Of a stretch of DNA of 64,000 nt, positions 5,042 to 62,316 are shown piece after piece (positions within the stretch are counted from its first letter, which is position 1; every line of letters starts with the position of its first letter). The notes beneath the pieces are model-generated. The model was not told where the DNA came from. It saw nothing but the letters and a program-made list of their open reading frames with translations, and ran no database searches. The stretch spans positions 864,001-928,000 of the forward strand of contig OZ253553.1 in the NCBI GenBank assembly GCA_965262715.1, written 5' to 3'. A program made the translations under genes and the position numbers. This DNA comes from Bdellovibrionales bacterium (GTDB taxonomy: Bacteria > Bdellovibrionota > Bdellovibrionia > Bdellovibrionales > JAUICD01).

Positions 5042-5230
5042 ATTTGGGTATTTGGCAAATTTCAAATTATCTAAGCCCATAAGCTTTAGTTACAGTTTTC
5101 AAATAGAAGAATTGAACACAAATGGTAATAGGGAAATTCTTTTCTTGTGTTTTTTCTTACTAAAAAGAAAATATAAGGAGTTATTTTCAAAAAAGGCACA
5201 TATTGTATCAATTTGCAACGGTCCTGGACT
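5042..5230 (+). repeat. 189-bp direct target duplication, left copy
   Basis: Same sequence as 8507-8695 (atttgggtatttgg...cggtcctggact); abuts the IS1634 TIR. Confidence 0.95.
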
Positions 5231-5579
5231 CCTGAGTTTGACACTTAATTTGAATTTTCGTGATATTTTTTTCAAGGAATGTTGTATTTATAGTCATTAG
5301 CGGTTATTGTGTTTGTATTTTGGTCAAAAAGTGTAGTGTACTTATTTATCATACACTACGCGTCATATACCTTATTTTCTTTTATTTTTTATATTTTTCT
5401 TGTAATGTATTTTTATGTTCATAAGGTCTACAAGAAATCCGAGAAGGGACATATATTATCATCTTGTTGAGAGCTACAGATTAGGTTCTCAAGTGAAGCA
5501 AAGGATTCTAATGTCTTTAGGTAAAGCCGCGGATAAGGAAGTTAACTTGAAGAAGCTTCTAGAAGTTGAGGTGTACCCT

Positions 5580-6533
5580 TTATTTGGAGGATCCGTTCCA
5601 TATTTTACTCACTTCTGAGATTCCCATTGTTGTTAATTCTCCTGTTTTCCATTTAGCTTCAAATTCATTAGGTGATAAGTAACCTAATGAAGAATGTCGC
5701 CTTTTTTTATTATACATACCTTCGATAAACTTTGGAATACTTCTTAATACATCTTCAAAAGTTTTATATTCACACAGATGAACCTCTTCTCGTTTTAAAG
5801 AGCTAAAGAAAGATTCAACAAATGCATTATCCCAACAATTGGCTTTTCTCGACATACTGATCTTAAAGCCTTTTTCTTTAAGCTTGTAGGTATAATCTTT
5901 ACTGGTGTATTGCACACCTTGATCACTATGATGAATACATCCTTTAGTATCTGATCTCTGCTCTAAACTCATCTCTAAAGCTCCTAAACAAAGCTCTGTG
6001 TTGATCTCTCTAGAAATAGCCCACCCTACAATCTTCCTTGAAAAAATATCTAAAATCACTGCTAAAAAAACAAAACCATCTTGAATCCTAATGTATGTGA
6101 TATCTGTTACCCAAAGCTGGTTGGGTCTATTCACTTCAATGCCAAAAGTTAAATTCGGATAAACTCGATTTGAATGTTTAGAATCCGTGGTTGAAACCTT
6201 AAAACCTTTGTAAATCAAAGCCTTTAAACCGTATTTCCGCATAATGCGAGCAATCCTCTTGTGGTTGGCTTTAATACTCTTCTCTTGCTCAAGTTCCAAT
6301 TGAATACGACGTATTCCATACATCGGGTATTTACACTGTATCCTCTCAATCTGCTCTTTCAAATCAAAATCCCTTTGCTCTCGCTCTTGCTGTGAAATCT
6401 TTCTCTTGTAATAGTAGCTACTTAAAGGTAACCCTAACGCTTTACACGTTTTTGAAATTGATCCAAATTCTTTCCAGTGATTACCGACGATCCTACGCTT
6501 TTCCTCTGTTGAAGCTCCTTTTTGGCTTTTTTT
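5580..6533 (-). CDS. IS3 OrfB (DDE integrase core), probably fused to OrfA by -1 frameshift
   Basis: WVTDITY, HHSDQGVQY, DNAFVESFF motifs. The -1 frame is open back to an A7G slippery run at 6526-6533 (minus strand). Confidence 0.88.
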   Translation of the reverse strand, partial: KKSQKGASTEEKRRIVGNHWKEFGSISKTCKALGLPLSSYYYKRKISQQEREQRDFDLKEQIERIQCKYPMYGIRRIQLELEQEKSIKANHKRIARIMRKYGLKALIYKGFKVSTTDSKHSNRVYPNLTFGIEVNRPNQLWVTDITYIRIQDGFVFLAVILDIFSRKIVGWAISREINTELCLGALEMSLEQRSDTKGCIHHSDQGVQYTSKDYTYKLKEKGFKISMSRKANCWDNAFVESFFSSLKREEVHLCEYKTFEDVLRSIPKFIEGMYNKKRRHSSLGYLSPNEFEAKWKTGELTTMGISEVSKIWNGSSK

Positions 6534-6784
6534 AAAAACTCGTTTTCTAAGCTGAGCTGTCCTACCTTTGCCTGAAGAGCATATATTTGTCTCTCTAGAG
6601 ATCTCTCCCTTGATGAAGGGTTTCCCAAAGGTGTCCCTTGTTGATACTTCTTAAACCACTCTAAGACTGTTTGGCGATGAAGTTGATGCTCCCGGCAAAT
6701 CTCTAACAAAGATCTGCCTTCATGCATCGATTTACAAATAGCTTCCTTAAATTCAACATTAAATCGTCTTCTTACTTTGCCCAT
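6434..6784 (-). CDS. IS3 OrfA (HTH)
   Basis: RRRFNVEFK...LENEFLKKA is a typical IS3 OrfA. Confidence 0.88.
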   Translation of the reverse strand: MGKVRRRFNVEFKEAICKSMHEGRSLLEICREHQLHRQTVLEWFKKYQQGTPLGNPSSRERSLERQIYALQAKVGQLSLENEFLKKAKKELQQRKSVGSSVITGKNLDQFQKRVKR

Positions 6785-8506
6785 GATCTTCCTCCTGATC
6801 TTATAGCTTTTTATAGCTAAAATTCAGGAATCTCAAGTGAGTTACTTTATCACTTAACTCTCCAGTTTATGGGGTACAGACCAAGTATTATCTAAAGAGT
6901 TAGAGATAATTCCTGCTAGTAAGTTATTAAAAGAGATTGATGTTAAAGACACTTTTATATTAGGTCCCTTACTTATAATAGATGCTATTTTCAAACAATT
7001 AAATCTCTATGAATTATTAACAGATTTAAAACAAAAGCACCCTAAAGTACAATTTGATTTTGTTAAGATTATTTTTACATTGGTTATAAGCCGTTTTGTA
7101 GAGCCATGTTCTAAGCTTAAAGTATTTTCACACTGGCAGAAGTTATTTTACCCTGATTTTTTAGAAGAGGAGCTTCATCTTCAAGACATTTATCGTTCTT
7201 TAGATATTCTAAGTAAGCATAAGGAAGATATAGAGAAGACTCTTTATACACAAGGTAAGTCTCAGTTAAGTTTTTTCAATGAGTGTGATGTTATTTTGTA
7301 TGATTTAACGACATTGAGATTTGAGAGTACCCGAGAGGATTTAGATAATCTTCGAAGATTTGGTTATAGCAAAGAGAAGAGGAGTGATTGTACCCAGGTG
7401 GTATTTGGACTTTTAGTAGATAGAGAAGGTATGCCCTTAGGCTTTGATGTTTATCCTGGAAATACCTTTGAAGGTAAAACCATACCTTCAGTTATGGAGA
7501 AACTAAAAAAGAAGTTTAAGATCAGAAGATTTATATTAGTAGGAGATAGAGGTTTATTTTCTAATGAGAATTTACAATCTGTAAAAGCAAAGGGAGATGA
7601 ATTTATAGTAGGATTAAAGCTAGGTTTATTAAAGGATCGTCATGCAGAGATATACAATTTAAAGAATTTTAAATTTATAAATGAAAATTTAGCTATATAC
7701 GAGACGAGTTATAATGATAATCGTTGTATAATTACCTGGTCAAGAAAGAGAGCAGAACGAGATAAGAAAGTAAGAGAAGATATTCTATCTAAGTTAGAAG
7801 ATAAGCTTTCAAAATCGTCATCAAGCACAAAGGATTTTGTATCTAATAGCAATTATAAGAAGTATATTATTCATCCTAAGAGTAAAGGCAAGCCTACTTT
7901 AAATAAGTCAGCCATAGAACAATCAGAGAGGACAGATGGTTTTTTTGGAATCATTACAAATACAGATAGTTTAAGTTCTGAAGAGATTATAACGAACTAT
8001 AAGCAATTATGGAAGGTAGAGAATTCATTTAGAGAATTGAAAGGTACATTAAAGACACGTCCTATGTTCCACTGGACAGATAAGAGGATCTTAGGACATT
8101 TAGTTGTGTGTTTTTTATCTTACTTATGTGAGGCTTATTTTTCAAAGAAGTTACATCAGAGAAACATCACATTAAAAGATAAAGCAATTACAGACAAGAG
8201 AATAAAGTCAAGGCCATTGAGTGTGGCAGAAGCTATGTCAAAGCTGAAAGAAGTACGAGCTATACCTGTGAGGATAAAGGATAAGACACTTTGGATCAGA
8301 ACAGATATTAACGGTAACAATGCTGATGTATTTAAAGCTATAGGAGCAAAGATCCCATCAAAACAACTTAAAGTAGAATCTACTTAGACCTACAAACAAT
8401 CTCTTAAATCTCTACCACAAAATCAAAATGTAGTGGTACAAAATCACACATCCACTGTAACTAACTAAAATAACTTAACTTTATTTTCGCAACTGTCAAA
8501 CTCAGG

Positions 8507-8695
8507 ATTTGGGTATTTGGCAAATTTCAAATTATCTAAGCCCATAAGCTTTAGTTACAGTTTTCAAATAGAAGAATTGAACACAAATGGTAATAGGGAA
8601 ATTCTTTTCTTGTGTTTTTTCTTACTAAAAAGAAAATATAAGGAGTTATTTTCAAAAAAGGCACATATTGTATCAATTTGCAACGGTCCTGGACT
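8507..8695 (+). repeat. 189-bp direct target duplication, right copy
   Basis: Same sequence as 5042-5230. Confidence 0.95.
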
Positions 8696-9084: not shown

Positions 9085-12000
9085 ATGAAAAAAATAATGA
9101 AATTCTTTAGGGTTATAAAAAAACGAAACATAAAAAAGCATTTTTTGTTAAGTTTTAATAATGCCTTTTATCTACTTCTATTGGCTTCACTTTTCTTGTT
9201 ATTAGCTTTTCAAAACTGCGGTTCAAATGTAAGTCAAGCTCCTAACCTGTTTTCTGAACAAACGGTATCTAATGATAAAGGTTATATTATTGCTTATTTA
9301 CCATCAGAAGATGAAAGCATCTCGATAGAAGATTATTTCCTAATTGATAGTGATGTGAAACTAAAGGTTATGAATAGTCATTCTGATTCTGAAGATTTTA
9401 AATGGAAAATCACTAGAGCCTTTGAAACTATTACTGATGGAGAAGAGACAACAACTGAACCAGAATACCAACATAAATTCGAACAATATGGAAGTTACGA
9501 TATTTTTGCTACATCTTATAAAAGCTCTGATTTGTTAACCGTGGCCAGTAAAAGACTTGTGATTGGTGAGGAATGCTCATTAACAGATGTCTTAGAGATA
9601 TTTCTTGAAAGCGGTTCTTTGACTGTTGGACAGACTGCCACTTTTGAATTAAAGAATGCTATAGATTTTTCGAACATCTTATGGAAGGTCACATTACCTT
9701 CTTCAACTGAGGAGACAAACGAAGATGATAGTGAAAGTATTGAATTAGACTTTACCAATGAATCTGCTGGTTCTGTTACTATTGAGGTGTCTGCAGAAGA
9801 TCCTGACAATTCTGATTGCCTCACCTATCGAAAACAAGTTTTGCAAGTGAGCTCTAATTCTAAACCTCATTTTAATCCAATAATTATTAAACATAATGAT
9901 GAAGAAATTGCTGTGATGTTAGAAAGTAATAACATTTATAAGTATTTAAGACCTGAAGGTGGAACTTGGACATTACATACAAATATTCAAAATGCTAATC
10001 AATGTGAACTTCAAATTGATAGTGGCAGTGAGGATGTACTAAATTGCAGTGATGGTGTAATAGACATCACTTCAACTGAAGTCTGTGTAAAAAGTACTAT
10101 AGCAATACAAGCTTCAACCTCTTCTTCTACCACTATAGATAGTCAAACTTCGGCAGATGATATAGTTGAACAGTTTTATTATAATTACTGTCCATCAGAT
10201 GGCAGCTATTGTTATTTTTCCGGACCTTTACCTGGTCCATTAAGTTATCAGACCTGTGACAATTCTATATTAGGCCAAGCTGTTACACGCAATCCATCTT
10301 CAATCGTAAATGGAGAATGTAATAACTCCGTCAAAAATGGTTGTATTCAAGGTACTTTAAATGACATAGATGATTCAGAAACTCATTATCAGTGGCAGTG
10401 TTTAGGTACCAACGATGGCACTGATGCTACAGGTTGCTGCAGTATGGCCATTGATACAGCAGCACCAATAAATGGTGTTTGCGGCGATGACACCATCAGA
10501 AATGGTTGTACTGCTGGGACTCCAGACGACGGCGCAATAGCTGATACAAGTACTCATTATACATGGCATTGTGTTGGCTCAAATGGTGGTGCAACAGCAA
10601 GTTGTACAAAAGCTATACCTCCTGTCAACGGCGTTTGTAATAACAGTCAACAAAATGGTTGTTCTTCGGGCACAGCAAATGATGCAGCTATAGCCGATAC
10701 AAACACTCATTATACATGGCACTGTGAAGGTTCAAATGGAGGCAGCACTGCTACAAATTGTCAAAAAGCAAAATCTGCACCAGTAAACGGCGTTTGTAAT
10801 AACAGTCAACAAAATGGTTGTTCTTCGGGCACAGCAAATGATGCAGCTATAGCCGATACAAACACTCATTATACATGGCACTGTGAAGGTTCAAATGGAG
10901 GCAGCACTGCTACAAATTGTCAAAAAGCAAAATCTGCACCAGTAAACGGTGTTTGTAATAATAATCAAAGAAATAGCTGTTCTTCGGGCACTGCAAACGA
11001 TGGCGCAATAGCCGATACAAATACACATTATACATGGCACTGCGTAGGTGCAAATGGAGGCACTACTGCTACAAATTGTCAAAAAGAGAAACCTGTTAAC
11101 GGTGCTTGTAATAATGCTCAAAGAAATGGCTGTTCTTCGGGCACTGCAAACGATGGCGCAATAGCTGATACAAATACACATTATACATGGCATTGTGTAG
11201 GTGCAAATGGCGGCACTACTGCTACAAACTGTCAAAAGGCAAAACCTGTTAAAGGTATTTGTAATAACAGTCAACAAAATGGTTGTTCTTCCGGCACAGC
11301 AAATGACTCAGCTATAACCGATACAAATACTCATTATACATGGCACTGTGTGGGTAAAAATGGAGGCAGTACTGCTACAAATTGTCAAAAGGCGAAACCT
11401 GCATCAGTAAACGGTGTTTGTAATAACAGTCAGCGAAATGGCTGCTCTGCTGGCAGAGCAAACGACGCCGTAATAGTCGATACAAATACACATTATACAT
11501 GGCACTGTGAAGGTTCAAATGGCGGCACTACAGCACAAAGTTGTCAAAAACTAATGCCTATCCATGGCGTTTGTGATAACAGTAAACAAAATAGCTGCTC
11601 TTCCGGCACTCCAAACGACGGCGTTATTGCAGATACAAATACACATTATACATGGTACTGCATAGGTGCAAATGGCGGCACTACTGCTATAGATTGTCAA
11701 AAGCTGATACCTATCGATGCCGTTTGTGATCAAAGCCAAAGAAATGGTTGCTCTGCTGGGACTGCAAAGGCATTGCCAGATAATACACATTCCACCCTTT
11801 ATCTATGGACTTGTGAAGGTTTGCATGGAGGTGGAAATCAAAGTTGTACTAGATTAAAAAGTATCATCGAAGGAGTTTGTGATAACAGCCAACGAAATGG
11901 CTGCAGCTCTGGGACTCCAGACGATGGCGCAATAAATGATACAGATACACATTATACATGGCTCTGTATGGGTGCAAATGGCGGCGCTACTGCTACAAAT

Positions 12001-12171
12001 TGTCAGATACAGAAAACACCTATCAATGGTTCTTGTAATCTGGGGCAAAGGAATGGTTGCTATTCGGGCACTCCAAAGGCACAGCCAGATGATGAGATAA
12101 ATAACTCTTATGTATGGCTTTGTGAAGGTTCAAATGGCGGCAAAACAGCAAGATGTTTCAAACGAAGATAA
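9085..12171 (+). CDS. Large Cys-rich tandem-repeat surface lipoprotein
   Basis: Hydrophobic signal ending LAFQNC; acidic beta-rich N-terminal region; 12 repeats of about 50 aa with 4 Cys. The exact start is uncertain. Confidence 0.85.
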   Translation: MKKIMKFFRVIKKRNIKKHFLLSFNNAFYLLLLASLFLLLAFQNCGSNVSQAPNLFSEQTVSNDKGYIIAYLPSEDESISIEDYFLIDSDVKLKVMNSHSDSEDFKWKITRAFETITDGEETTTEPEYQHKFEQYGSYDIFATSYKSSDLLTVASKRLVIGEECSLTDVLEIFLESGSLTVGQTATFELKNAIDFSNILWKVTLPSSTEETNEDDSESIELDFTNESAGSVTIEVSAEDPDNSDCLTYRKQVLQVSSNSKPHFNPIIIKHNDEEIAVMLESNNIYKYLRPEGGTWTLHTNIQNANQCELQIDSGSEDVLNCSDGVIDITSTEVCVKSTIAIQASTSSSTTIDSQTSADDIVEQFYYNYCPSDGSYCYFSGPLPGPLSYQTCDNSILGQAVTRNPSSIVNGECNNSVKNGCIQGTLNDIDDSETHYQWQCLGTNDGTDATGCCSMAIDTAAPINGVCGDDTIRNGCTAGTPDDGAIADTSTHYTWHCVGSNGGATASCTKAIPPVNGVCNNSQQNGCSSGTANDAAIADTNTHYTWHCEGSNGGSTATNCQKAKSAPVNGVCNNSQQNGCSSGTANDAAIADTNTHYTWHCEGSNGGSTATNCQKAKSAPVNGVCNNNQRNSCSSGTANDGAIADTNTHYTWHCVGANGGTTATNCQKEKPVNGACNNAQRNGCSSGTANDGAIADTNTHYTWHCVGANGGTTATNCQKAKPVKGICNNSQQNGCSSGTANDSAITDTNTHYTWHCVGKNGGSTATNCQKAKPASVNGVCNNSQRNGCSAGRANDAVIVDTNTHYTWHCEGSNGGTTAQSCQKLMPIHGVCDNSKQNSCSSGTPNDGVIADTNTHYTWYCIGANGGTTAIDCQKLIPIDAVCDQSQRNGCSAGTAKALPDNTHSTLYLWTCEGLHGGGNQSCTRLKSIIEGVCDNSQRNGCSSGTPDDGAINDTDTHYTWLCMGANGGATATNCQIQKTPINGSCNLGQRNGCYSGTPKAQPDDEINNSYVWLCEGSNGGKTARCFKRR
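10306..12160 (+). repeat. 12 coding tandem repeats (VNGxC..NGC..GT...HYTWxCxGxNGG...C)
   Basis: Units 3 and 4 form an exact 159-bp tandem (10627-10949); outer units are more diverged. Confidence 0.92.
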
Positions 12172-43000: not shown

Positions 43001-43021
43001 AGAATGCTTTTTCTTGAAGTA

Positions 43022-43711
43022 TCAATAGGCTCCGGATTGAATCAGGAGAAACTTTTTATATAAGATCACTGCCGCCCAAACAAATGAAAGACAAATAAAA
43101 AAAATTCCTAAATAACCTACAAAAAAGGCTATTTTATCATGGTACTGCATGCTATCAAACTTTGTTAAAAGATAGTGCCAATCATGAACATCTGGATTTT
43201 CCTGTCCTATTATTCCTCCAAGTAGAGGCAGTTTTTTATCCCATGCATCATAAATGTAAGGGGCAACGTCTAAAAAGTTGTACCCAATCCACCACAAGCC
43301 AACTGAAGCTCCAAAATTATCTCTCTGCCTCAAAAACTGAATCATGACAGCCGAGGGCATAAGGCATTGCATAAGACTTCCTCCAAAGGCATGCATGGTA
43401 TTTCCTAGAGGTCTAAAAATCCAATGTCCTGCTTCATGGAAGATCAAATTGACATTATGGAGGAAGTAGTCCGTCATGGAATTATTATAAGGGTCTTTAT
43501 TAAAATCTATCTCGTCAAAAAAGCTAGTACCTATAAAAAACAAGGCGATGTAGAGTAAACAGTGAAAAGAAAAAGCAAGAGAACCAACTTCTCTCTCTTC
43601 TACAAAGAATACCCAATTAAAAAAGCTTTGAATAAAGCTCTCTTGTTTTTTAAAAACCTCTTGTTTCTTAAGAGCAGGTGTTATTTTGTATATTCTTCGT
43701 CTTAATGCCAC
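43022..43711 (-). CDS. Membrane HExxH protein (M50-like), duplicate copy 1
   Basis: FHEAGH, HDWHYLL; translation identical to 46605-47294. Confidence 0.75.
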   Translation of the reverse strand: MALRRRIYKITPALKKQEVFKKQESFIQSFFNWVFFVEEREVGSLAFSFHCLLYIALFFIGTSFFDEIDFNKDPYNNSMTDYFLHNVNLIFHEAGHWIFRPLGNTMHAFGGSLMQCLMPSAVMIQFLRQRDNFGASVGLWWIGYNFLDVAPYIYDAWDKKLPLLGGIIGQENPDVHDWHYLLTKFDSMQYHDKIAFFVGYLGIFFICLSFVWAAVILYKKFLLIQSGAY

Positions 43712-44237
43712 GGTTGTATGGGGCCATGTGTTACTATAACTTCAGGTTGACTAAATAATTTTTGTGATAAATCCAAAATTTGTTGAGTTGTCACTTCATT
43801 GATATGATCGGCATAACTAAAGACTTCTTTATAAGAAATATTATAGATTTCACGGAAGAAAATAGCTGAGCTTAAGGAAGAGTTTTTTTGAAGTGCTATA
43901 TTATAGTGACCTATAAGGTATTTCTTAGCTCTCTCTAATTCTTCTTCTGAGACGAGATGGGTACAAAGTTTTTGAATTTCTATTTTCATCATATCAATTG
44001 CTAATTTTCCTTTATCTGGCTGGCAAGCAATGTAAATAGCAAAAAAACCTGCTTCCTTCCCCATTAGAGAAAAAGGGGTAACCGTGTAAGCTAAAGATGC
44101 CTTATCTCTTAATTCTAAGAACAATCGGCCTGATTGACCTGAAAGAATAGCCTCTAGGACTTCAAGCGCAAATCGGTTTTTATCTCTAAAAGTTAAGCCT
44201 CTATAACCTAATACGATAGATGATTGAGCTTTATCCT
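43702..44237 (-). pseudogene. Duplicated 3' fragment of the M16 peptidase gene
   Basis: Identical to the end of 47285-49999 and cut at the IS end. Confidence 0.9.
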
Positions 44238-46157
44238 CCTGACTTCGACGGTTTAAACTTATAAGTTACTGGGATCATTGGATGATACATTACATCATAG
44301 GCACTACAATTGATTTTTAGTTATGTATTAAGTGTATTTTTATTCAATAAGATAAGGTGTTGTAGAGTGCTTAAGTCCCATAATCTGATAGATTTTCAGA
44401 GCTTCCTTACTTATATTTGAAGGTATAGAGTACTTTCTGTTATTGGTTTGATCTACTAATAAACTATGCTGTACATGGATTAAAGCATTTCGTATAACTT
44501 CCGGTGAACAGGATTGGTATTGTATCTTAATTCTGTAAGCTAAGTGTCTTATACAGACTAAACAGATAAAAGCAATGGCTATGTGTGCTTTGATCCGATC
44601 TGATGTCCAGTGAAATATAGGACGTATTTTTAAATCATGCTTAGCTATCCGGAATGTTTCTTCGACTTGCCATAACCCCTTATATTGGCTAATAATGTCT
44701 AAATCATCCATATCTTTGAGGTTTGTTATGACTCCAAACAAACCATCCCACTTTTGATCTTCTTTGACTCGATTTTCATTGACTGAAAGCTTTTGTTTCT
44801 TGCCTGTGACTTTTAAATACTTCTTATAACCGTAATTGTTTAATAAAGTCTTCACATCTTGAGCCTTTGAGAGTTTCTTAACTAAACTATCTATAGTTTG
44901 TTGACGATCATGTCGATCTTTCTCCGCTCTCTTATAAGAATAACAAACTATCACTTTCCTCTTATTATCTTTATCTTCTAATGATTGAATCTTGAAACCT
45001 TCTTGTTTACTGACAATTTTGTACTTTGACTTATCTAATACAAGCTCTTGTTTTACTTTTGGTAATTTCTTAAGCTTAGCTCCTACAATATAATGAAGAT
45101 TCTCATCTTCTAGTGCTTTTAAATTATCTTCACTTAACATTCCTCTATCAGCGACATAAATAGCTTGTTCTAAGTTATATTTAGACTTCATCTCTTTTAT
45201 CACTGGATTTAAGGTATGACCCTCGAAGATAGCACCCGGGAAAGTCTCGTAACTGACAGGAAAACCTTCTTTGGTCACAACGACTGCTAAACACACTTGA
45301 GATTCTTTAAACTTAGCATCTTTACTGTAACCTCTTTGTCTTAAATCATCTTCAATAATTGATTCAAAATACAGTGTCGTACAATCAAAAAACAAAACTT
45401 TCAAAGGCTCTTTAAAAACCTTTTGTGCCACTTGACCTGCCAGTCTCTTTATCTTATCTATCCTTTTGCTATCTAAACGATCCATCATGCGATAAATCTT
45501 CTCTAACGAAATATGAACTCCAAAATCCTCTTCTAAAAATCGACTGCTCTCTCTTTTACTTTGAGGATTAGCTATCCGAGCCATCACTGTATGAAATAAA
45601 ACCCAATGTGATGAATGATAACGACTCACTGGTAAAATGCGATCTAAACCTAATTCCTTGTACATAGCTCCATAAACCTCATGAATACCTACAATGACTC
45701 TTTGATCTTCCCTTAGTTTCTTAAGATCTACTTTTAAGGGTTTATTGCAATGACGAAACTTGGACTCAATCACTTGTTTAGAAATCTCTTCCGGAGCAAA
45801 AAAAGATAATTGATTTTCATTTGTTAGTTTAGCTTTGATGAATTCTCCAAGCTCTTGAAGACGAAATAGCTCATCCTCATCTTGAGCCACTCCGACATGA
45901 CGGATGATCTTTTGGCGAACTTTATTGCCATAACGGATAGAATCAACGATCTGAACTGACTGCCTTGGACTGTTTGGTGTGCTTTTGATTCTTACAAACA
46001 TAAAAATAATTTAATGCTTATTAAAAAAAAAGTCAAAATAAAAATAAAAATAATCTGACTTGGTGTGTTACTAGGCACTACATCGAAAACTTACTCCAAA
46101 ATCCTATAACCATCAATGTTACAAAATCAATACCGAACATAAACCGTCGAAGTCAGG
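44238..46157 (-). mobile_element. IS1634-family element B, copy 1 (1920 bp)
   Basis: 18-bp perfect TIR cctgacttcgacggttta. Confidence 0.95.
44340..46001 (-). CDS. IS1634 transposase (553 aa)
   Basis: FDCTTLYFE, GYSKD, VADRGM, LWQVEETFR..K..L..RPIFHW. Confidence 0.95.
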   Translation of the reverse strand: MFVRIKSTPNSPRQSVQIVDSIRYGNKVRQKIIRHVGVAQDEDELFRLQELGEFIKAKLTNENQLSFFAPEEISKQVIESKFRHCNKPLKVDLKKLREDQRVIVGIHEVYGAMYKELGLDRILPVSRYHSSHWVLFHTVMARIANPQSKRESSRFLEEDFGVHISLEKIYRMMDRLDSKRIDKIKRLAGQVAQKVFKEPLKVLFFDCTTLYFESIIEDDLRQRGYSKDAKFKESQVCLAVVVTKEGFPVSYETFPGAIFEGHTLNPVIKEMKSKYNLEQAIYVADRGMLSEDNLKALEDENLHYIVGAKLKKLPKVKQELVLDKSKYKIVSKQEGFKIQSLEDKDNKRKVIVCYSYKRAEKDRHDRQQTIDSLVKKLSKAQDVKTLLNNYGYKKYLKVTGKKQKLSVNENRVKEDQKWDGLFGVITNLKDMDDLDIISQYKGLWQVEETFRIAKHDLKIRPIFHWTSDRIKAHIAIAFICLVCIRHLAYRIKIQYQSCSPEVIRNALIHVQHSLLVDQTNNRKYSIPSNISKEALKIYQIMGLKHSTTPYLIE

Positions 46158-46583
46158 ATTAACTTTGAGGATCAAGTCAGTTTAGGGTTTCAATCCAACG
46201 ATTATTTGAAGGATATAGAGGAAGGACAGCAAACCTTATTAAATACTAGAGCTTTTAAATTTTATACTTATTATAGTCGGATCAAACAGCAAGTACAGGC
46301 ATCATGGAAGTTAATGATAAAAAAAGAAGTAAGAAAACTCTTACTTCAGCAAAGGGAAAGTATTTTAGGAGCTGAACAGAAAACAAGTCTGCTTATTACT
46401 CTTGATCGTTTTGGAGCTTTAGTGAGTGTTCAAGTCTTAAAAAAATCACATCTTGCTACTTTAGATCATATCGCTGTAAAAAGCTTCCAACTTACAGCTC
46501 CTTTTCCGCATCCTCCAAAAAGCCTTATAGGGGAAAAAGAATTCCTTCAAATTCGTTGGGATTTTATTTTGGAAAATGTATAA
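46158..46583 (+). pseudogene. Duplicated 3' fragment of the TonB-domain gene
   Basis: Identical to 42575-43000; lacks the N-terminal anchor. Confidence 0.88.
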
Positions 46584-46604
46584 AGAATGCTTTTTCTTGA
46601 AGTA

Positions 46605-47294
46605 TCAATAGGCTCCGGATTGAATCAGGAGAAACTTTTTATATAAGATCACTGCCGCCCAAACAAATGAAAGACAAATAAAAAAAATTCCTAAATAACC
46701 TACAAAAAAGGCTATTTTATCATGGTACTGCATGCTATCAAACTTTGTTAAAAGATAGTGCCAATCATGAACATCTGGATTTTCCTGTCCTATTATTCCT
46801 CCAAGTAGAGGCAGTTTTTTATCCCATGCATCATAAATGTAAGGGGCAACGTCTAAAAAGTTGTACCCAATCCACCACAAGCCAACTGAAGCTCCAAAAT
46901 TATCTCTCTGCCTCAAAAACTGAATCATGACAGCCGAGGGCATAAGGCATTGCATAAGACTTCCTCCAAAGGCATGCATGGTATTTCCTAGAGGTCTAAA
47001 AATCCAATGTCCTGCTTCATGGAAGATCAAATTGACATTATGGAGGAAGTAGTCCGTCATGGAATTATTATAAGGGTCTTTATTAAAATCTATCTCGTCA
47101 AAAAAGCTAGTACCTATAAAAAACAAGGCGATGTAGAGTAAACAGTGAAAAGAAAAAGCAAGAGAACCAACTTCTCTCTCTTCTACAAAGAATACCCAAT
47201 TAAAAAAGCTTTGAATAAAGCTCTCTTGTTTTTTAAAAACCTCTTGTTTCTTAAGAGCAGGTGTTATTTTGTATATTCTTCGTCTTAATGCCAC
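46605..47294 (-). CDS. Membrane HExxH protein (M50-like), duplicate copy 2
   Basis: As copy 1; GTG start overlaps the M16 stop. Confidence 0.75.
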   Translation of the reverse strand: MALRRRIYKITPALKKQEVFKKQESFIQSFFNWVFFVEEREVGSLAFSFHCLLYIALFFIGTSFFDEIDFNKDPYNNSMTDYFLHNVNLIFHEAGHWIFRPLGNTMHAFGGSLMQCLMPSAVMIQFLRQRDNFGASVGLWWIGYNFLDVAPYIYDAWDKKLPLLGGIIGQENPDVHDWHYLLTKFDSMQYHDKIAFFVGYLGIFFICLSFVWAAVILYKKFLLIQSGAY

Positions 47295-49999
47295 GGTTGT
47301 ATGGGGCCATGTGTTACTATAACTTCAGGTTGACTAAATAATTTTTGTGATAAATCCAAAATTTGTTGAGTTGTCACTTCATTGATATGATCGGCATAAC
47401 TAAAGACTTCTTTATAAGAAATATTATAGATTTCACGGAAGAAAATAGCTGAGCTTAAGGAAGAGTTTTTTTGAAGTGCTATATTATAGTGACCTATAAG
47501 GTATTTCTTAGCTCTCTCTAATTCTTCTTCTGAGACGAGATGGGTACAAAGTTTTTGAATTTCTATTTTCATCATATCAATTGCTAATTTTCCTTTATCT
47601 GGCTGGCAAGCAATGTAAATAGCAAAAAAACCTGCTTCCTTCCCCATTAGAGAAAAAGGGGTAACCGTGTAAGCTAAAGATGCCTTATCTCTTAATTCTA
47701 AGAACAATCGGCCTGATTGACCTGAAAGAATAGCCTCTAGGACTTCAAGCGCAAATCGGTTTTTATCTCTAAAAGTTAAGCCTCTATAACCTAATACGAT
47801 AGATGATTGAGCTTTATCCTTCATCTCATAGAAATAAGTTATTCCCTGAGTCAGTGGTTTTAATAAAGGATAAGGTGTATCTGAGAATTTGCTAAAAGAA
47901 AAGGACTCTATCAGATTTGTAAAAGTTTCTTGTATTTGCTCAAAATCGCAATCTCCAACAATAGATATGACCATTCTTTGAGGGTTCATTACCTTTTTCC
48001 AATAAGAAAGCAAGTCTTCTTGATGGACAATATCCAATGAATCGTTTGTGCCAAGCGGGTCTTTTGCATAAGGATGCCCTTTAAACAATATCTCTTTAAA
48101 AGATCTTATGGTCATCTTTAGAGGAGAGTCTTTGCGTTGAGCCAGCTTTTCTTTCATGGCCATTTTCTCCCTTTCTATAATTTCTTTTAAGAAGAGAGGT
48201 GACTTCAATACACTTTTTAAAAGAATTAAGCTTTGATCTAAAGAAGATGAAAGAGTTGTTAAACTCAAACCCAATGTATGTCTTCCTGAAAAAGCACTTA
48301 AAAAAGAGGCTAATTCATCAAGTTTTTGTTTTAGAAGACCTTCTGGATATTCAGAGGTGCCACAGGACCAAGACCTTCTAGTTAACTCAGAAATACCAAT
48401 AAATGCATCTGGCTCCACAATAGCTCCACCACCTTCAAAGCCTAAATCCAAACTCACAGTAGGTGTTTGAGTGGATTTGTAAACATACATTCTAGCACCT
48501 AATGGCAATTTTATTTCTTTTATCTCTGGCAAGGGTTTTTGTGAGACTTTTGGTGTGACTTTCTTCAAGTCATCATTATGGGCTTTATGATTTAGTGATG
48601 AAAAAAATTCTTTTTCATAGTGTTCAGCCCAATTTTCTAACTTAGTTTTAAGACTTTCTTGAGGGGTATTTTTGGTCATTACACAAAGTGACATATTTTC
48701 AGGAGATAAATATTTTTTAGTAACGTCAATAATATCTTTAATTTTTAACTGGTCAAGCTGGTTAAGGTGCTTTTTCCAACAATCAGGATCGTTCCATAGA
48801 GTTTCATAAAAGCCATATTTTTCTGAAAGGCCATCAACTGTTTCCATGTCATAATATTGATCGCTTTTTATCATGGTGATAGCTTTTTGAAGTTCCTTTA
48901 AAGGTGGATTTTTGGTAAAAAAAGATAACAATTCTTTTGCGAGGCTCTCAAGAGTGATATCGATCTTATCTTCAGAAAGCTGGCAAGAGATAATAAAAAC
49001 TCCACTATCTCTAAGGACATAGGTGTAAGAGCTTACAGAATTGACATAAAGGTTTTGCATTCTTAGTTCTTTATATAATCGAGAACTGTGACCTTGTCCC
49101 ATTATCACAGAAAGGGCTTCCAAAGCTGGTAAGTCATTCCGAAATGAAGATAATCTCCATGCTAAATGGATATGTGCTTCTTCAAATGAGGTTTTTTGAA
49201 CACCAATATTTTTTACTTTTTGAAAGTGAGTAACTTTTTTTTGTAAAGATGTGTGTTTTTTTAAAGCATTAAAGTAATGGTGAATGGAAGATTTAATTTG
49301 AGAAGCTTGAAAGTCACCTGAAATAACAAGAGTCATATTTTGAGGATAATAGTGATCTTGATAGTATTTTTTAATTTGCTCTGGAGTAAAATTTTTAATA
49401 TTCTCCTCATAACCTAAAATAGGATGTCCATAAGGATGTTTAGGATAAATTTTAGAGAAAAGGAGATCAGCTGATTGGCTGTGGGGGTTGTCTTTTGCTC
49501 TTTTTATCTCTTCAATAACAACCTGTCTCTCATCATCAATACTTTTTGCATTAAATTTAGGAAAAATAATCATTTGGCTTAAAGCATCGAAGGCTATTTG
49601 AGTGTAATGACTTGCAATTGTGATATAAAAAACAGTGTGGTCAAAGGAGGTGTAGGCATTAAGCCCTCCTCCTGCTGCTTCAATGAGATTTGCAACTTCT
49701 CCTACCTGGAACTTATCTGTTTCTTTAAAGAGAAGATGCTCAATAAAATGAGTTATACCCTCCTGTCCTCTTTGCTCATCTACGCTACCTGTTTTGACCC
49801 AAATTTGAGCAGATATAACAGGCGATTTGTGGCTCTCAATTAAAAGCACATTTAGGTTATTTGAGAGTTGATATTTTTCATGAGTTAAATTATAAGGATT
49901 TATGCCATCTTCTTTAAAATTTTCTAGCAACGGTGAAGCTGAATATCTTGATAGTTCACCTTCTTTACCTCTTGCAAATGATTGTTTTGGCTTATACAT
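47285..49999 (-). CDS. M16-family zinc peptidase (intact copy; true start probably downstream of 49999)
   Basis: HFIEH (HxxEH), NAYTSFD, ERQVVIEE; two-lobed M16 architecture. Confidence 0.92.
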   Translation of the reverse strand: MYKPKQSFARGKEGELSRYSASPLLENFKEDGINPYNLTHEKYQLSNNLNVLLIESHKSPVISAQIWVKTGSVDEQRGQEGITHFIEHLLFKETDKFQVGEVANLIEAAGGGLNAYTSFDHTVFYITIASHYTQIAFDALSQMIIFPKFNAKSIDDERQVVIEEIKRAKDNPHSQSADLLFSKIYPKHPYGHPILGYEENIKNFTPEQIKKYYQDHYYPQNMTLVISGDFQASQIKSSIHHYFNALKKHTSLQKKVTHFQKVKNIGVQKTSFEEAHIHLAWRLSSFRNDLPALEALSVIMGQGHSSRLYKELRMQNLYVNSVSSYTYVLRDSGVFIISCQLSEDKIDITLESLAKELLSFFTKNPPLKELQKAITMIKSDQYYDMETVDGLSEKYGFYETLWNDPDCWKKHLNQLDQLKIKDIIDVTKKYLSPENMSLCVMTKNTPQESLKTKLENWAEHYEKEFFSSLNHKAHNDDLKKVTPKVSQKPLPEIKEIKLPLGARMYVYKSTQTPTVSLDLGFEGGGAIVEPDAFIGISELTRRSWSCGTSEYPEGLLKQKLDELASFLSAFSGRHTLGLSLTTLSSSLDQSLILLKSVLKSPLFLKEIIEREKMAMKEKLAQRKDSPLKMTIRSFKEILFKGHPYAKDPLGTNDSLDIVHQEDLLSYWKKVMNPQRMVISIVGDCDFEQIQETFTNLIESFSFSKFSDTPYPLLKPLTQGITYFYEMKDKAQSSIVLGYRGLTFRDKNRFALEVLEAILSGQSGRLFLELRDKASLAYTVTPFSLMGKEAGFFAIYIACQPDKGKLAIDMMKIEIQKLCTHLVSEEELERAKKYLIGHYNIALQKNSSLSSAIFFREIYNISYKEVFSYADHINEVTTQQILDLSQKLFSQPEVIVTHGPIQPWH

Positions 50000-53829: not shown

Positions 53830-55644
53830 TTGATGGATGATGTTAGAGCAGGTCTACCAATTCATCTTAGAAAATATATTGTAGATCAAAATTATAATAA
53901 ATACACACCAAAGGACCATGCTGTCTGGCGATGCACTTTGAGGCAATTAAGACATTCTTTGTCAGAGAACGCTCATAAATGTTATGAGAATGGATTAGAT
54001 AAAACAGGAATTTCTACAGAAAGTATTCCAAAAATTTCAGATATTTCTTTTAAATTACAAAAGTGCGGCTGGAAGGCACTACCTGTTAGTGGATTTATAC
54101 CACCTGCTGCCTTTATGGAACTTCAAGCACTAGGCTTTTTACCTATTGCATCTGATATCAGAACTTTAGAACAAATCACGTATACACCAGCACCTGATAT
54201 TGTGCATGAAGCTGCCGGACATGCTCCTATTTTAATTGATTCTGACTTCACTAAATACCTGGGAAGCTATGCTCAAGTTGCCTATAAGGCTATCATTAAC
54301 AAAGAAGATTTGGATTTATATCGAGCTATACGTATCTTATCTGATATCAAAGAATCTAGCAATTCATCTGATGATGAGATAAGACAAGCTGGAAATAATT
54401 TAAAAAAAGCAACTGAAAAAATGGAGGACCCTTCTGAAGCAGCACTACTTGCTCGAATGAACTGGTGGACAGCAGAATATGGTCTTATCGGCGACATCAG
54501 ATCTCCAAAGATTTATGGAGCAGGACTTTTATCTTCTATTGCTGAAAGTTCTGATGCTCTTACCTCTAAGGTTAAAAAAATTCCTTTTAGTTTAAAGTGC
54601 CTTGAATATTCTTATGATATAACAAAACCTCAGCCTCAACTTTTTGTCGTAGATTCTTTTGAGACATTGACCAAGGCATTAAAAGATATAGAAAAGACAA
54701 TGGCCTTTTACCGTGGTGGCACCTATGGCTTAAAAATAGCTAAAAAGTCACAAACAGTAAATACTGTTGAGTGCAATTCTGGGTTACAAATATGTGGAAT
54801 TTTAACTAACTACAAAGAAAAGCAATCAGAGCCTATTTTTATTCAAATGCAAGGTCCTACACAGCTCTGCTATAAAGGGCAGATGATACATGGACATGAT
54901 AAGAGGCGGCATCTTCAAGGATTTAGCTGCCCTATTGGGAAGCTTAAAGGATACGATCAGTGCCTTTCAAAATGGAATAATTTAGAATCATTAGACTTAA
55001 AAAAAGAAAATGCACTATATGAAATAACAACAGAAAAACAATTAGATGCTCTACAAATGAAATGTTATTCATTAAAACCAAATAAAATTCAAATGCACTT
55101 TCAATCTGGTATAAAGGTTAGCGGAATACCTATTTGTCTACAAGAGACACCAGATGAAACCCCTCTAATTATAACTTTTAAAGATTGTAAGGTCACTTAT
55201 TACGATGAAGTTTTATTTGATCCTTCTTGGGGAGAATTCGACATGGCTGTAGGTTCTTCTATCCATTCTGTTTTTAGTGGTCCTTCAGATCGAGAAGCCT
55301 ATGGTAAAACAGACACATTTATAAACAAAAAAAAGACTTCTATAAAACCACAAACACAGAAAGAAAAACAGCTGTGTGAGCTTTATGCTAAAGTACGAAA
55401 AATAAGATTGCAATTTAACACTTATAAAAACTTACCTTTTGAACTTAAAGAGAGTTTAGAAGTACTAGAGCAAGATTTTGCCGAAGATTGGTTATTACCA
55501 TTAGAAATTCTTGAATTATCTTATCGAATCACTCCAACTCCACACTGGCAAAAACCTTTAAAGAAAAGACTCCTTGACCTCTCCTTAAGTCATAAACAAC
55601 ACGCTCAAATAATCCATACAGGTATTAAGATGCTGTGTCCCTAA
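53830..55644 (+). CDS. phhA: Aromatic amino acid (phenylalanine-4) hydroxylase, long form
   Basis: YTPAPDIVHEAAGHAP, WWTAEYGL, IYGAGLLSS, YDIT.PQPQLFV. Confidence 0.9.
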   Translation: MMDDVRAGLPIHLRKYIVDQNYNKYTPKDHAVWRCTLRQLRHSLSENAHKCYENGLDKTGISTESIPKISDISFKLQKCGWKALPVSGFIPPAAFMELQALGFLPIASDIRTLEQITYTPAPDIVHEAAGHAPILIDSDFTKYLGSYAQVAYKAIINKEDLDLYRAIRILSDIKESSNSSDDEIRQAGNNLKKATEKMEDPSEAALLARMNWWTAEYGLIGDIRSPKIYGAGLLSSIAESSDALTSKVKKIPFSLKCLEYSYDITKPQPQLFVVDSFETLTKALKDIEKTMAFYRGGTYGLKIAKKSQTVNTVECNSGLQICGILTNYKEKQSEPIFIQMQGPTQLCYKGQMIHGHDKRRHLQGFSCPIGKLKGYDQCLSKWNNLESLDLKKENALYEITTEKQLDALQMKCYSLKPNKIQMHFQSGIKVSGIPICLQETPDETPLIITFKDCKVTYYDEVLFDPSWGEFDMAVGSSIHSVFSGPSDREAYGKTDTFINKKKTSIKPQTQKEKQLCELYAKVRKIRLQFNTYKNLPFELKESLEVLEQDFAEDWLLPLEILELSYRITPTPHWQKPLKKRLLDLSLSHKQHAQIIHTGIKMLCP

Positions 55645-55815
55645 AAATAGTCTCGCCTCTGGCGACTTTCTGGCATTGCCCCCAGACGGACTTACACCGT
55701 CTGGCAAATAGGGCAATGCCTAGAAAGTATGACTATTTTTAGGAAAGAGACTCTCCTCATCTTTTTACATCATGTTAAGGAAAATCTTTCTTTACCATCT
55801 CCTATATAAAAAGTT
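55628..55815 (+). repeat. Hairpin-plus-tail repeat, copy A (overlaps the phhA stop)
   Basis: Rod-like palindrome 55640-55743; near-identical to 57165-57352. Confidence 0.85.
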
Positions 55816-55825
55816 ATGTCTATAC

Positions 55826-57164: not shown

Positions 57165-57352
57165 AGATGCTGTGTCCCTAAAAATAGTCTCGCCTCTGGC
57201 GACTTTCTGGCATTGCCCCCAGACGGACTTACACCGTCTGGCAAATAGGGCAATGCCTAGAAAGTATGACTATTTTTAAGAGGGAGACTCTCCTTATCTT
57301 TTTACATCACGTTAAGGAAAGTCTTTCTTTACCATCTCCTATATAAAAAGTT
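57165..57352 (+). repeat. Hairpin-plus-tail repeat, copy B
   Basis: Tandem partner of copy A; period 212 bp once the IS and one TSD are removed. Confidence 0.85.
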
Positions 57353-57532
57353 GTGCATATATATTAATATATAACTTTATGTAAATTTAACTTATCTGCT
57401 ACCGAAGTCTTTTGTAGTAGTAAAATAAATCTTTGAAAAGCAACCAGCCTTTAGTTAAGTCTTTTGTCTATTGAAGAAGAAATATTATAAAGAATTCTAC
57501 CTATTATTAAAGGTTTAGATTACACTTCTTTT

Positions 57533-58986: not shown

Positions 58987-59167
58987 AGGGAGGGTCTTCT
59001 CATTACTTTATATGATGTTAGGGAAAATATTTTCGTTTCTTTGTTAAAAACTTATCATTACCATTCGCGTTCAATTTTTCTATTTGTAAGCTTTTTATAT
59101 TGAATGCTAAATCAGAAAAAAGCAATAAAAACCAATGATAAGAAGGGGAAAGAGCTGACTCAGGGCA

Positions 59168-59637: not shown

Positions 59638-59759
59638 ACCCTTAATCTCTCTAAAACCCGCCTTAAGAAAACTGGGAACGGACAAAACACCTGCTTTTTA
59701 TAATTATAACAATCAGTTAACCCCTATAAAAATCAACTTAAGTTGTCATGAACCATCAA

Positions 59760-59797
59760 TAAAAAAACCAGAAAGACTTTTATCCTTCTGGCTTTTT
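59760..59797. terminator. Bidirectional intrinsic terminator (originally for the lipoprotein gene)
   Basis: A-tract, ccagaa...ttctgg stem, T-tract. Confidence 0.6.
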
Positions 59798-59816
59798 ATC
59801 TACGCATCTAAATGTT

Positions 59817-60106
59817 AATAAAGCTTATTATTGTGCTGTTGTCGTCGCTGCTGCTACTGATAATGGTCTCGCTTCTGAATAAGGGCCTACTATAATAGTA
59901 TCTGCATCAATAACTACACGAATGCGAACTCTCCAATAATAGGTTCCATCATTAAGCGTATTTGCAAGAGTGAAACTTTTTGATGGATTTGCTAAATCTG
60001 AAATATCTATAGTGCCTGTTGCTTCAATACTGCTAAACGCTTGATCAGAAGCAAGTTGAAATTCATATTGAATGCTATAGACGCTAATAAGAGTAGTGAG
60101 GATAGT
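59817..60106 (+). repeat. 290-bp direct target duplication, left copy (orphan 3' end of the lipoprotein gene)
   Basis: aataaagctt...gaggatagt, repeated at 62027-62316. Confidence 0.95.
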
Positions 60107-62026
60107 CCTGACTTCGACGGTTTATGTTCGGTATTGATTTTGTAACATTGATGGTTATAGGATTTTGGAGTAAGTTTTCGATGTAGTGCCTAGTAACACA
60201 CCAAGTCAGATTATTTTTATTTTTATTTTGACTTTTTTTTTAATAAGCATTAAATTATTTTTATGTTTGTAAGAATCAAAAGCACACCAAACAGTCCAAG
60301 GCAGTCAGTTCAGATCGTTGATTCTATCCGTTATGGCAATAAAGTTCGCCAAAAGATCATCCGTCATGTCGGAGTGGCTCAAGATGAGGATGAGCTATTT
60401 CGTCTTCAAGAGCTTGGAGAATTCATCAAAGCTAAACTAACAAATGAAAATCAATTATCTTTTTTTGCTCCGGAAGAGATTTCTAAACAAGTGATTGAGT
60501 CCAAGTTTCGTCATTGCAATAAACCCTTAAAAGTAGATCTTAAGAAACTAAGGGAAGATCAAAGAGTCATTGTAGGTATTCATGAGGTTTATGGAGCTAT
60601 GTACAAGGAATTAGGTTTAGATCGCATTTTACCAGTGAGTCGTTATCATTCATCACATTGGGTTTTATTTCATACAGTGATGGCTCGGATAGCTAATCCT
60701 CAAAGTAAAAGAGAGAGCAGTCGATTTTTAGAAGAGGATTTTGGAGTTCATATTTCGTTAGAGAAGATTTATCGCATGATGGATCGTTTAGATAGCAAAA
60801 GGATAGATAAGATAAAGAGACTGGCAGGTCAAGTGGCACAAAAGGTTTTTAAAGAGCCTTTGAAAGTTTTGTTTTTTGATTGTACGACACTGTATTTTGA
60901 ATCAATTATTGAAGATGATTTAAGACAAAGAGGTTACAGTAAAGATGCTAAGTTTAAAGAATCTCAAGTGTGTTTAGCAGTCGTTGTGACCAAAGAAGGT
61001 TTTCCTGTCAGTTACGAGACTTTCCCGGGTGCTATCTTCGAGGGTCATACCTTAAATCCAGTGATAAAAGAGATGAAGTCTAAATATAACTTAGAACAAG
61101 CTATTTATGTCGCTGATAGAGGAATGTTAAGTGAAGATAATTTAAAAGCACTAGAAGATGAGAATCTTCATTATATTGTAGGAGCTAAGCTTAAGAAATT
61201 ACCAAAAGTAAAACAAGAGCTTGTATTAGATAAGTCAAAGTACAAAATTGTCAGTAAACAAGAAGGTTTCAAGATTCAATCATTAGAAGATAAAGATAAT
61301 AAGAGGAAAGTGATAGTTTGTTATTCTTATAAGAGAGCGGAGAAAGATCGACATGATCGTCAACAAACTATAGATAGTTTAGTTAAGAAACTCTCAAAGG
61401 CTCAAGATGTGAAGACTTTATTAAACAATTACGGTTATAAGAAGTATTTAAAAGTCACAGGCAAGAAACAAAAGCTTTCAGTCAATGAAAATCGAGTCAA
61501 AGAAGATCAAAAGTGGGATGGTTTGTTTGGAGTCATAACAAACCTCAAAGATATGGATGATTTAGACATTATTAGCCAATATAAGGGGTTATGGCAAGTC
61601 GAAGAAACATTCCGGATAGCTAAGCATGATTTAAAAATACGTCCTATATTTCACTGGACATCAGATCGGATCAAAGCACACATAGCCATTGCTTTTATCT
61701 GTTTAGTCTGTATAAGACACTTAGCTTACAGAATTAAGATACAATACCAATCCTGTTCACCGGAAGTTATACGAAATGCTTTAATCCATGTACAGCATAG
61801 TTTATTAGTAGATCAAACCAATAACAGAAAGTACTCTATACCTTCAAATATAAGTAAGGAAGCTCTGAAAATCTATCAGATTATGGGACTTAAGCACTCT
61901 ACAACACCTTATCTTATTGAATAAAAATACACTTAATACATAACTAAAAATCAATTGTAGTGCCTATGATGTAATGTATCATCCAATGATCCCAGTAACT
62001 TATAAGTTTAAACCGTCGAAGTCAGG
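60107..62026 (+). mobile_element. IS1634-family element B, copy 2 (1920 bp)
   Basis: Same 18-bp TIRs and same length as 44238-46157, opposite orientation. Confidence 0.95.
60263..61924 (+). CDS. IS1634 transposase (553 aa)
   Basis: Translation identical to 44340-46001. Confidence 0.95.
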   Translation: MFVRIKSTPNSPRQSVQIVDSIRYGNKVRQKIIRHVGVAQDEDELFRLQELGEFIKAKLTNENQLSFFAPEEISKQVIESKFRHCNKPLKVDLKKLREDQRVIVGIHEVYGAMYKELGLDRILPVSRYHSSHWVLFHTVMARIANPQSKRESSRFLEEDFGVHISLEKIYRMMDRLDSKRIDKIKRLAGQVAQKVFKEPLKVLFFDCTTLYFESIIEDDLRQRGYSKDAKFKESQVCLAVVVTKEGFPVSYETFPGAIFEGHTLNPVIKEMKSKYNLEQAIYVADRGMLSEDNLKALEDENLHYIVGAKLKKLPKVKQELVLDKSKYKIVSKQEGFKIQSLEDKDNKRKVIVCYSYKRAEKDRHDRQQTIDSLVKKLSKAQDVKTLLNNYGYKKYLKVTGKKQKLSVNENRVKEDQKWDGLFGVITNLKDMDDLDIISQYKGLWQVEETFRIAKHDLKIRPIFHWTSDRIKAHIAIAFICLVCIRHLAYRIKIQYQSCSPEVIRNALIHVQHSLLVDQTNNRKYSIPSNISKEALKIYQIMGLKHSTTPYLIE

Positions 62027-62316
62027 AATAAAGCTTATTATTGTGCTGTTGTCGTCGCTGCTGCTACTGATAATGGTCTCGCTTCTGAATAAGGGCCTAC
62101 TATAATAGTATCTGCATCAATAACTACACGAATGCGAACTCTCCAATAATAGGTTCCATCATTAAGCGTATTTGCAAGAGTGAAACTTTTTGATGGATTT
62201 GCTAAATCTGAAATATCTATAGTGCCTGTTGCTTCAATACTGCTAAACGCTTGATCAGAAGCAAGTTGAAATTCATATTGAATGCTATAGACGCTAATAA
62301 GAGTAGTGAGGATAGT
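62027..62316 (+). repeat. 290-bp direct target duplication, right copy
   Basis: Copy of 59817-60106. Confidence 0.95.

Follow-up and report, generated by a model that had tools for sequence, protein, structure and literature searches.

Long, variable target duplications at IS1634-family insertions in a Bdellovibrionales genome and its relatives suggest separate placement of the two element ends

The DNA analyzed here (the window) is a 64,000-nucleotide stretch of a Bdellovibrionales bacterium (contig OZ253553.1, positions 864,001 to 928,000, forward strand). An earlier note, based on its letters alone, had described three insertion sequence (IS) elements of the IS1634 family in it, belonging to two types, A and B, and bounded by direct repeats of 189, 1663, and 290 bp that begin with A and end with T. 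On recomputation, the repeats are found exactly where the note had placed them (5042–5230 and 8507–8695; 42575–44237 and 46158–47820; 59817–60106 and 62027–62316), with 0 mismatches and extendable by no base on either side. All three adjoin elements that run from CCTGA to TCAGG, with A as the first and T as the last base of both the inner and the outer repeat copy. Since they occur in both copies, these boundary bases are target DNA, which rules out the idea that the A is part of the element end.

Element A (5231–8506, + strand) lies between the left (5042–5230, +) and right (8507–8695, +) copies of its 189-bp duplication, at a site that is intergenic by open reading frame (ORF) calls. Its 3276 bp comprise a 1956-bp element, whose terminal inverted repeats match at 13 of 14 positions, and an IS3-family element nested in the transposase gene (5567–6883, −; ORFs 5580–6362 and 6434–6784, matching rve, HTH_Tnp_1, and NF033516), which splits element A in BLAST alignments at element positions 337–1653. 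The 3' remainder of the interrupted transposase gene (7080–8387, +) retains a DDE_Tnp_1 match; intact A transposases elsewhere have 544–550 amino acids (aa), and in one case 510 aa.

The first B element (44238–46157, −; 1920 bp; transposase 44340–46001, 553 aa) is enclosed by the 1663-bp duplication. The left copy (42575–44237, +) contains the 3' part of an intact gene with a TonB C-terminal domain (42053–43000, +), a complete 229-aa gene (43022–43711, −), and a 3' fragment of an M16 peptidase gene (43702–44124, −; Peptidase_M16_C). The right copy (46158–47820, +) contains a 3' fragment of the TonB-domain gene (46206–46583), a second, identical copy of the 229-aa gene (46605–47294), and the end of the M16 gene, and so completes an intact 904-aa M16 peptidase gene (47285–49999, −). 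The insertion is thus associated with the copying of one whole gene, for which no Pfam or NCBIfam match was found in either copy, while the TonB-domain and M16 genes stay intact. The second B element (60107–62026, +; transposase 60263–61924) is identical to the first over 1920 bp and lies in the opposite orientation, between the left (59817–60106, +) and right (62027–62316, +) copies of the 290-bp duplication; its transposase carries D206, D285, and E447 and a clamp-like QLSFF motif at residues 64–68. The right copy contains the 3' end of a 281-aa gene (62038–62883, −), which is left intact.

The assignment to IS1634 and the distinction of two types both hold. Against NF033559 (IS1634; cut-off 100), B scores 381.8 bits and the intact A-type transposase 369.4, and three further types of the same genome score 347.5 (C), 362.7 (D), and 262.2 (E); the A and B transposases are approximately 30% identical. 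Element sizes (B, 1920 bp; A types, 1835–1956 bp without the nested IS) lie within the 1500–2000 bp single-ORF range of the family (PMC2266710), and the terminal inverted repeats, CCTGACTT in B and CCTGAGTT in A, are of the C-----YT type and match at 13–14 of 14 positions. D206, D285, E447, Y440, and K454 are invariant in 41 long-repeat and 13 short-repeat proteins compared below, the DDE triad having a long spacer, and L443 replaces the arginine of the YREK signature. These properties agree with the traits of the family, in which YREK mostly lacks the arginine. Membership of the IS4 family fails on the missing arginine and on a score of 36.9 bits against NF033592 (cut-off 115). What departs from IS1634 is the duplication itself: instead of the typical 5–6 bp, 189, 290, and 1663 bp are seen, and only 8 of 228 related events have 4–8 bp.

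The host genome (G000; 2.94 Mb, 33.6% GC) contains 36 full IS1634-family copies of the five types. Repeats of 38–1666 bp flank 31 of the 34 copies of types A–D; the others are one copy with an interrupted 327-bp repeat, one with 4 bp, and one unresolved in a tandem array. Both E-type copies have 7-bp repeats. The earlier note had concluded from the identical B elements of the window, with 290 and 1663 bp, that length is fixed per event, and the genome bears this out: repeats at its 8 B copies range from 87 to 1663 bp, varying between copies of one element. Nine B-type reading frames are 99.8%–100% identical, and B elements are probably active. Of 62 junctions in this genome, 56 have an A next to the element end (background 0.33, p = 9e-21); leaving out the three events of the window, the count is 50 of 56. 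As a control, 11 of 13 BLAST rows for IS5 in this genome could be end-resolved, none with an exact long repeat; one IS5 copy has an 85% flank match that stems from flanking dispersed repeats. The IS3 control is weak, with just 1 of 10 rows end-resolved, likewise without an exact long repeat. At one locus (2903764–2907847), a B element lies inside an older B-like copy, with an inner repeat of 244 bp (at 2904116) and an outer repeat of 345 bp whose first five bases are identical to the element end; the 244-bp repeat was counted as an event, and the 345-bp and interrupted 327-bp repeats were excluded. A-type transposases look mosaic, with near-identical 5' and diverged 3' parts or the reverse, which suggests recombination between subtypes.

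To extend the sample, relatives were gathered by alignment with types A–D (the best 80 of 568 matches, 75 loci), and all copies were searched for in 15 of those genomes and five more, most though not all full-length copies being taken. Ends were set by the inverted-repeat pattern alone, before any look for repeats. This yielded 283 distinct elements, divided among 22 genomes and one pool of singletons (23 groups); metagenome loci were mostly contigs holding the element alone. As to whether other copies would have short or no repeats, 228 of the 283 are duplicated, over 4–1701 bp with a median of 165 bp. The 55 repeat-less elements include 16 with flanks swapped between copies, 13 with interrupted repeats, 10 with short flanks (<1.8 kb), and 16 that are unexplained; at some loci the flank is about 1.3 kb, which hides the longest repeats there. 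Matches between flanks are rare by chance: among 6646 mismatched pairs, at least 5 bp matched in 0.12% and 4 bp in 0.9%. Junction and phasing statistics were computed for repeats of at least 20 bp (216 events, 432 junctions). Since the copies of one genome have their transposase in common, p-values overstate independence across lineages, although each insertion is still a separate event. Pairs of copies with exchanged flanks (in G041, G042, G051, G058, and G059; for example L210/L252, L228/L246, and L067/L350) record rearrangements, and long repeats ease the mapping of such rearrangements between IS copies.

The A bias, first seen in three events, extends to the whole set: the element is joined to an A at 359 of 432 junctions, compared with 109 expected, at 302 of 370 outside G000, and, in a host of 66% GC (G041; background 0.17), at 37 of 48 junctions at each end. 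The earlier note had described a one-nucleotide preference. Its choice of base stands, but its confinement to one position does not, as the bias spans approximately −5 to +5 (A at −3, A or T at −2, G but not T at −1, a purine at +2, and A at +4) and the flanking motif is kept at non-A junctions (p = 1e-6, scored in-sample). Details vary with element type. The same A-centered motif occurs at both IS ends. This motif reaches outside the repeat and is non-palindromic (best center r = 0.20), and a partner T is absent at staggers of 2–13, T at +2 to +13 making up 16%–31% against 25% expected. G000 had hinted at a hidden palindrome of 7 bp (T at +3, A at +5), which was unsupported in the pooled set. 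Because a non-palindromic motif is shared by both ends and no partner T appears at any of these staggers, each end reads its own site, in line with the independent positioning proposed earlier. The mapped junctions thereby show two separately chosen sites on opposite strands, 4–1700 bp apart, in an orientation that nearly always duplicates. Only 4 events lack the A at both ends, where 7.6 would be expected (P = 0.048), which weakly suggests one strict and one relaxed transfer step.

Repeat lengths carry no sign of helical phasing. The earlier note had suggested looking for a period of about 10.5 bp, and none was found (R = 0.01, n = 216; R = 0.02 for the 97 repeats under 150 bp), the simulated power being 1.0 for a 50% and 0.70 for a 30% modulation. 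Scanning periods of 9.5–12 bp gave one nominal match at 11.5 bp in G000 (p = 0.006, <400 bp) that lost significance when all events were included (p = 0.14). An exponential (Kolmogorov–Smirnov p = 0.32) and a log-normal distribution (p = 0.21) both fit. Repeats under 20 bp number 12 of 228 and are mostly real; lengths of 11, 14, 16, and 19 bp and many of 23–50 bp occur, and there is a small excess in the 4–8 bp class (8 of 228 observed, 4.3 expected). The upper limit that the note had also raised is not evident as a hard ceiling at 1.7 kb: of the 172 events flanked by 3.5 kb or more, the longest repeat is 1701 bp, but only 1.2–2.1 longer events would be expected, and the cut-off is not significant. 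Median length differs across seven genomes (77–364 bp, p = 0.003), while A and B do not differ within G000 (p = 0.90), and no replication-direction bias of length was found.

For 19 of the 216 events, the target occurs in several copies, among them an uninterrupted one that bears the repeat sequence once (for example, at a 50-bp event in G000, with 100% identity). Since these uninterrupted copies carry the target once, the duplication was made at insertion in those 19 events, and the comparison of occupied and empty targets indicates indirectly that the duplications in general arise at insertion. For the three window events, no empty site was found among the sequences compared; for the 1663-bp event, no empty allele was found in four relatives, the same-genus genome being non-syntenic there. 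Some repeat pairs have diverged (92%–99.8% identity). By simple ORF calls, 5 of the 31 insertions in G000 break a gene, whereas random placement would break 14.7 with the observed lengths and 22.5 if repeats were 6 bp long; 7 ORFs are duplicated in full. The few broken genes relative to chance suggest that surviving insertions have been filtered by selection. For genomes, long repeats make insertion less damaging.

A quick maximum-likelihood tree of 68 transposases (SH-aLRT support, without bootstrap or outgroup; 14 proteins unlabeled, 5 of these inside the long group) contains one branch (SH-aLRT 99) that parts 41 long-repeat transposases from 13 with short repeats (4–7 bp). As far as this tree reaches, long-repeat behavior is shown to be confined to one clade, with the caveats that sampling of the long group relied on long-type queries and that several short labels come from one copy, with ends picked using a bonus for a short repeat, two 4-bp labels being weak. 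Residues near the active site separate the groups: T209 (41/41 versus 0/13), W444 (95% versus 0), G423 (85% versus 0), and S214 (88% versus 1/13). As the long group has a single origin, these four are candidates, not causes. Neither protein length nor a clamp motif marks the long-repeat clade: proteins of approximately 510 aa occur in both groups, and putative clamp motifs are present in 18 of 41 long-repeat and 6 of 13 short-repeat transposases. The QLSFF motif is internal rather than C-terminal (at 175 or 177 in A and at 64 in B) and is absent from D and E. Its differing positions, 64 in B (60263–61924) and 177 in A (L001:2185–3837), suggest a separate origin in the two types. A predicted model of the B transposase (mean pLDDT 73.8, from a 5-sequence alignment) is closest among solved folds to Tn5 transposase (1mus; Z 16.2, rmsd 6.6, 312 aligned). 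The spacing of Y440, W444, E447, and K454 equals that of the YREK helix in Tn5 residue numbering.

A model that accommodates these observations, and that we hold with moderate confidence, is that the two ends are transferred sequentially and uncoupled from each other, a directional step lying in between. The transposase, a DDE enzyme that resembles Tn5 and belongs to one subclade of IS1634, would join the two 3' ends singly, not together. The first end would be transferred at a preferred site, leaving a nick; the second active site would then meet the other strand at a point displaced in a single direction, and transfer of the second end would follow after a waiting time that is roughly memoryless. 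Host replication or repair would subsequently copy the DNA between the two sites, and selection would retain those insertions in which a gene end lies within the duplication. The directional step could consist of host strand-displacement synthesis, or a helicase, proceeding from the 3'-OH of the nick, or of the target sliding through a tethered complex. Host-driven displacement is slightly favored, because it would give polarity directly and fits host-dependent lengths, but the data do not separate the two. Long gap fill-in, as envisaged earlier, would not suffice: a stretch between nicks as much as 1.7 kb apart would stay paired, so that displacement or replication would be needed. A more specific version, in which a clade of IS1634 transposases widespread across many bacterial phyla integrates by a so far undescribed two-step route, each end recognizing its own asymmetric A-centered site and host synthesis starting at the first nick before the second joining, is put forward only tentatively. 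If this version is true, the element would be a one-step device for local gene duplication, up to approximately 1.7 kb and often sparing the gene it hits, and its exact removal would be possible by recombination between the repeats.

Several observations weigh against sequential transfer or limit it. Lengths of 9–31 bp are scarce (10 versus 18.6 expected under the exponential), a deficit also to be expected from a barrier to looping. The sign of one strict and one relaxed step is weak: pooling gives a Fisher p of 0.23, and flank scores correlate at −0.30 (p = 0.007) within three GC-rich genomes yet at −0.04 (p = 0.52) in the whole set. The relaxed (non-A) end does not track the IS end (27 versus 38) and shows no bias with transcription direction (26 versus 21, by crude ORF calls) or with replication direction as judged by local skew and dnaA position. 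Single residues, but no additional domain, distinguish the long-repeat clade. Across genomes, differences between hosts are confounded with those between elements, and all events have passed selection and recombination, which reshape lengths and possibly removed deletion products.

Of the alternatives, we give most weight to insertion at a replication fork, and consider it unlikely. Here the two ends would enter the two fork arms, so that the stretch between them has already been copied, with the transposase recruited by the beta clamp; polarity, unphased lengths, and very short repeats would follow without long displacement synthesis. The longest repeat of 1701 bp is near the size of Okazaki fragments, but the apparent ceiling is not significant, as given above. 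QLSFF occurs in A and B, an Acidiphilium IS1634 transposase is reported to bind the clamp (PMC4549789, in the part available), and fork targeting has been reported for Tn4430 (bioRxiv 10.64898/2026.05.30.728999, likewise in part); against this, clamp-like motifs are spread over both transposase groups, and on the Acidiphilium plasmid the copy whose repeat could be resolved shows 5 bp. Replichores reveal no asymmetry: judged by local skew, 32 of 65 events have the non-A end nearer the origin, and judged by dnaA position, 25 of 46; the IS points in the direction of the fork in 67 of 152, fork assignment being noisy (two methods agree in 93 of 152). A by-eye replication-direction trend in G041 and G000 did not hold (12/19 and 4/5). 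Concerted attack on two distant sites of a looped, intact duplex within one complex, the looping raised in the earlier note, is disfavored and appears improbable to us. The two motif-bearing sites per event, the length mode of 64–255 bp with its mild deficit at 9–31 bp, and a tail exponent of approximately 2–2.5 would suit it; the lack of phasing, even in the 97 repeats under 150 bp, and the repeats of 11–19 bp and 23–50 bp do not, and looping offers no reason for the strong excess of duplications.

Recombination between IS copies is real, as the 16 repeat-less elements with swapped flanks attest, and a small 4–8 bp class exists. Two nearby insertions with a short stagger, followed by unequal recombination between the copies, could therefore leave one element between long repeats. 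This course of events would, however, predict a partner T at +5 to +7, where T makes up only 20%–31%; it would be needed for approximately 80% of copies, even in genomes with 2–4 copies, and should give equally many deletions. We regard it as very improbable. That the repeats are assembly artifacts at repeated elements, or duplications predating the element, is hardly credible. The evidence is assembly-based rather than read-level, and the three window events lack an empty site among the sequences compared, but end-resolved IS5 and IS3 copies of the same assembly have no exact long repeat and 2 E-type copies have 7 bp. Moreover, neither the A/T motif nor the clade restriction can stem from assembly, some repeats have diverged, 19 events have empty sites, and long variable repeats are a published trait of the family in the accessible part of the review (PMC2266710). 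To models other than these we give little weight, about as much as to looping.

By the textbook rule, DDE transposases attack the target in concert and at a fixed stagger, and IS1549 and IS1634 break this rule. According to the available part of the 2008 family review, typical IS1634-family duplications are 5–6 bp, IS1549 and IS1634 being exceptions with 8–514 bp for which no mechanism had been proposed (PMC2266710). Like the elements described here, IS1634 of Mycoplasma mycoides and IS1549 of Mycobacterium smegmatis combine family membership with long, copy-variable repeats; by contrast, repeats here reach 1.6–1.7 kb, three times the maximum in that part of the review, and duplicate whole genes. 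Among Mycoplasmopsis IS1634-type copies, 7 of 10 end-resolved ones have repeats of 43–400 bp, with A at 12 of 14 junctions, and two long-repeat proteins from them fall in the long-repeat clade (in a tree without IS1549 and IS1634 themselves). Short-repeat members (ISPfe2, ISGka5, Mesorhizobium copies, and the E type) have similar C-rich ends; D-D-E and Y..E..K are conserved in 13 aligned short-repeat proteins, and the E type shares NF033559. ISPfe2 and ISGka5 are each listed with 6 bp in the portions available (PMC3281130 and PMC8024623), and Mesorhizobium plasmid copies have 5–6 bp in 8 of 8 loci. The short-repeat members on the tree, which does not include ISPfe2 and ISGka5, lie outside the long-repeat clade and are without T209 and W444.

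Tn5/IS50, the closest fold to B, and the IS4 family differ in their concerted transfer and in the YREK arginine, which is absent here. Fixed repeats of 7–13 bp are given for IS4-family elements (PMC2266710). ISH3-family elements are noted to have A/T flanks (PMC2266710), but are archaeal and have fixed 4–5 bp repeats, unlike the elements here. Insertion of restriction-modification genes with long, variable target duplications has been attributed to double-strand breakage, and, unlike the IS1634 elements here, involves neither transposase nor inverted ends (PMC2853133, as far as available). The accessible part of PMC3053259 adds nothing on repeats. In the literature searched, mostly non-subscription, no description was found of the junction motif, kilobase repeats, phasing, polarity, clade, or mechanism, and the 1998/1999 originals may mention boundary bases. 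Long variable repeats are thus already known for the family, whereas that literature appears not to describe how large they become, the junction motif, the polarity, the absence of phasing, or the restriction to one clade; the value of the present data therefore lies in the size range and the mechanistic constraints, not in the phenomenon. The 228 mapped events narrow the models by separate site choice, polarity, absence of phasing, one clade, and candidate residues, and an old mechanistic question becomes testable with one protein. Annotation that seeks only short repeats would score such elements as repeat-less.

Some further features of the genome and window were observed. Cumulative GC skew of G000 shows local reversals near 1.6–1.8 Mb and 2.3–2.6 Mb, with dnaA at 2.28 Mb, which is consistent with large inversions. 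The IS5 copy of the window is flanked by a 197-bp repeat, 95% identical (55628–55824 and 57165–57361). Both arms are units of a dispersed repeat of approximately 150 bp that is present in dozens in the host genome, often in tandem with a period of approximately 230 bp, and this IS5 therefore probably inserted between two units. Finally, a 1028-aa ORF at 9085–12171, with no Pfam match, contains degenerate internal repeats of approximately 153–159 bp and one exact 164-bp match.

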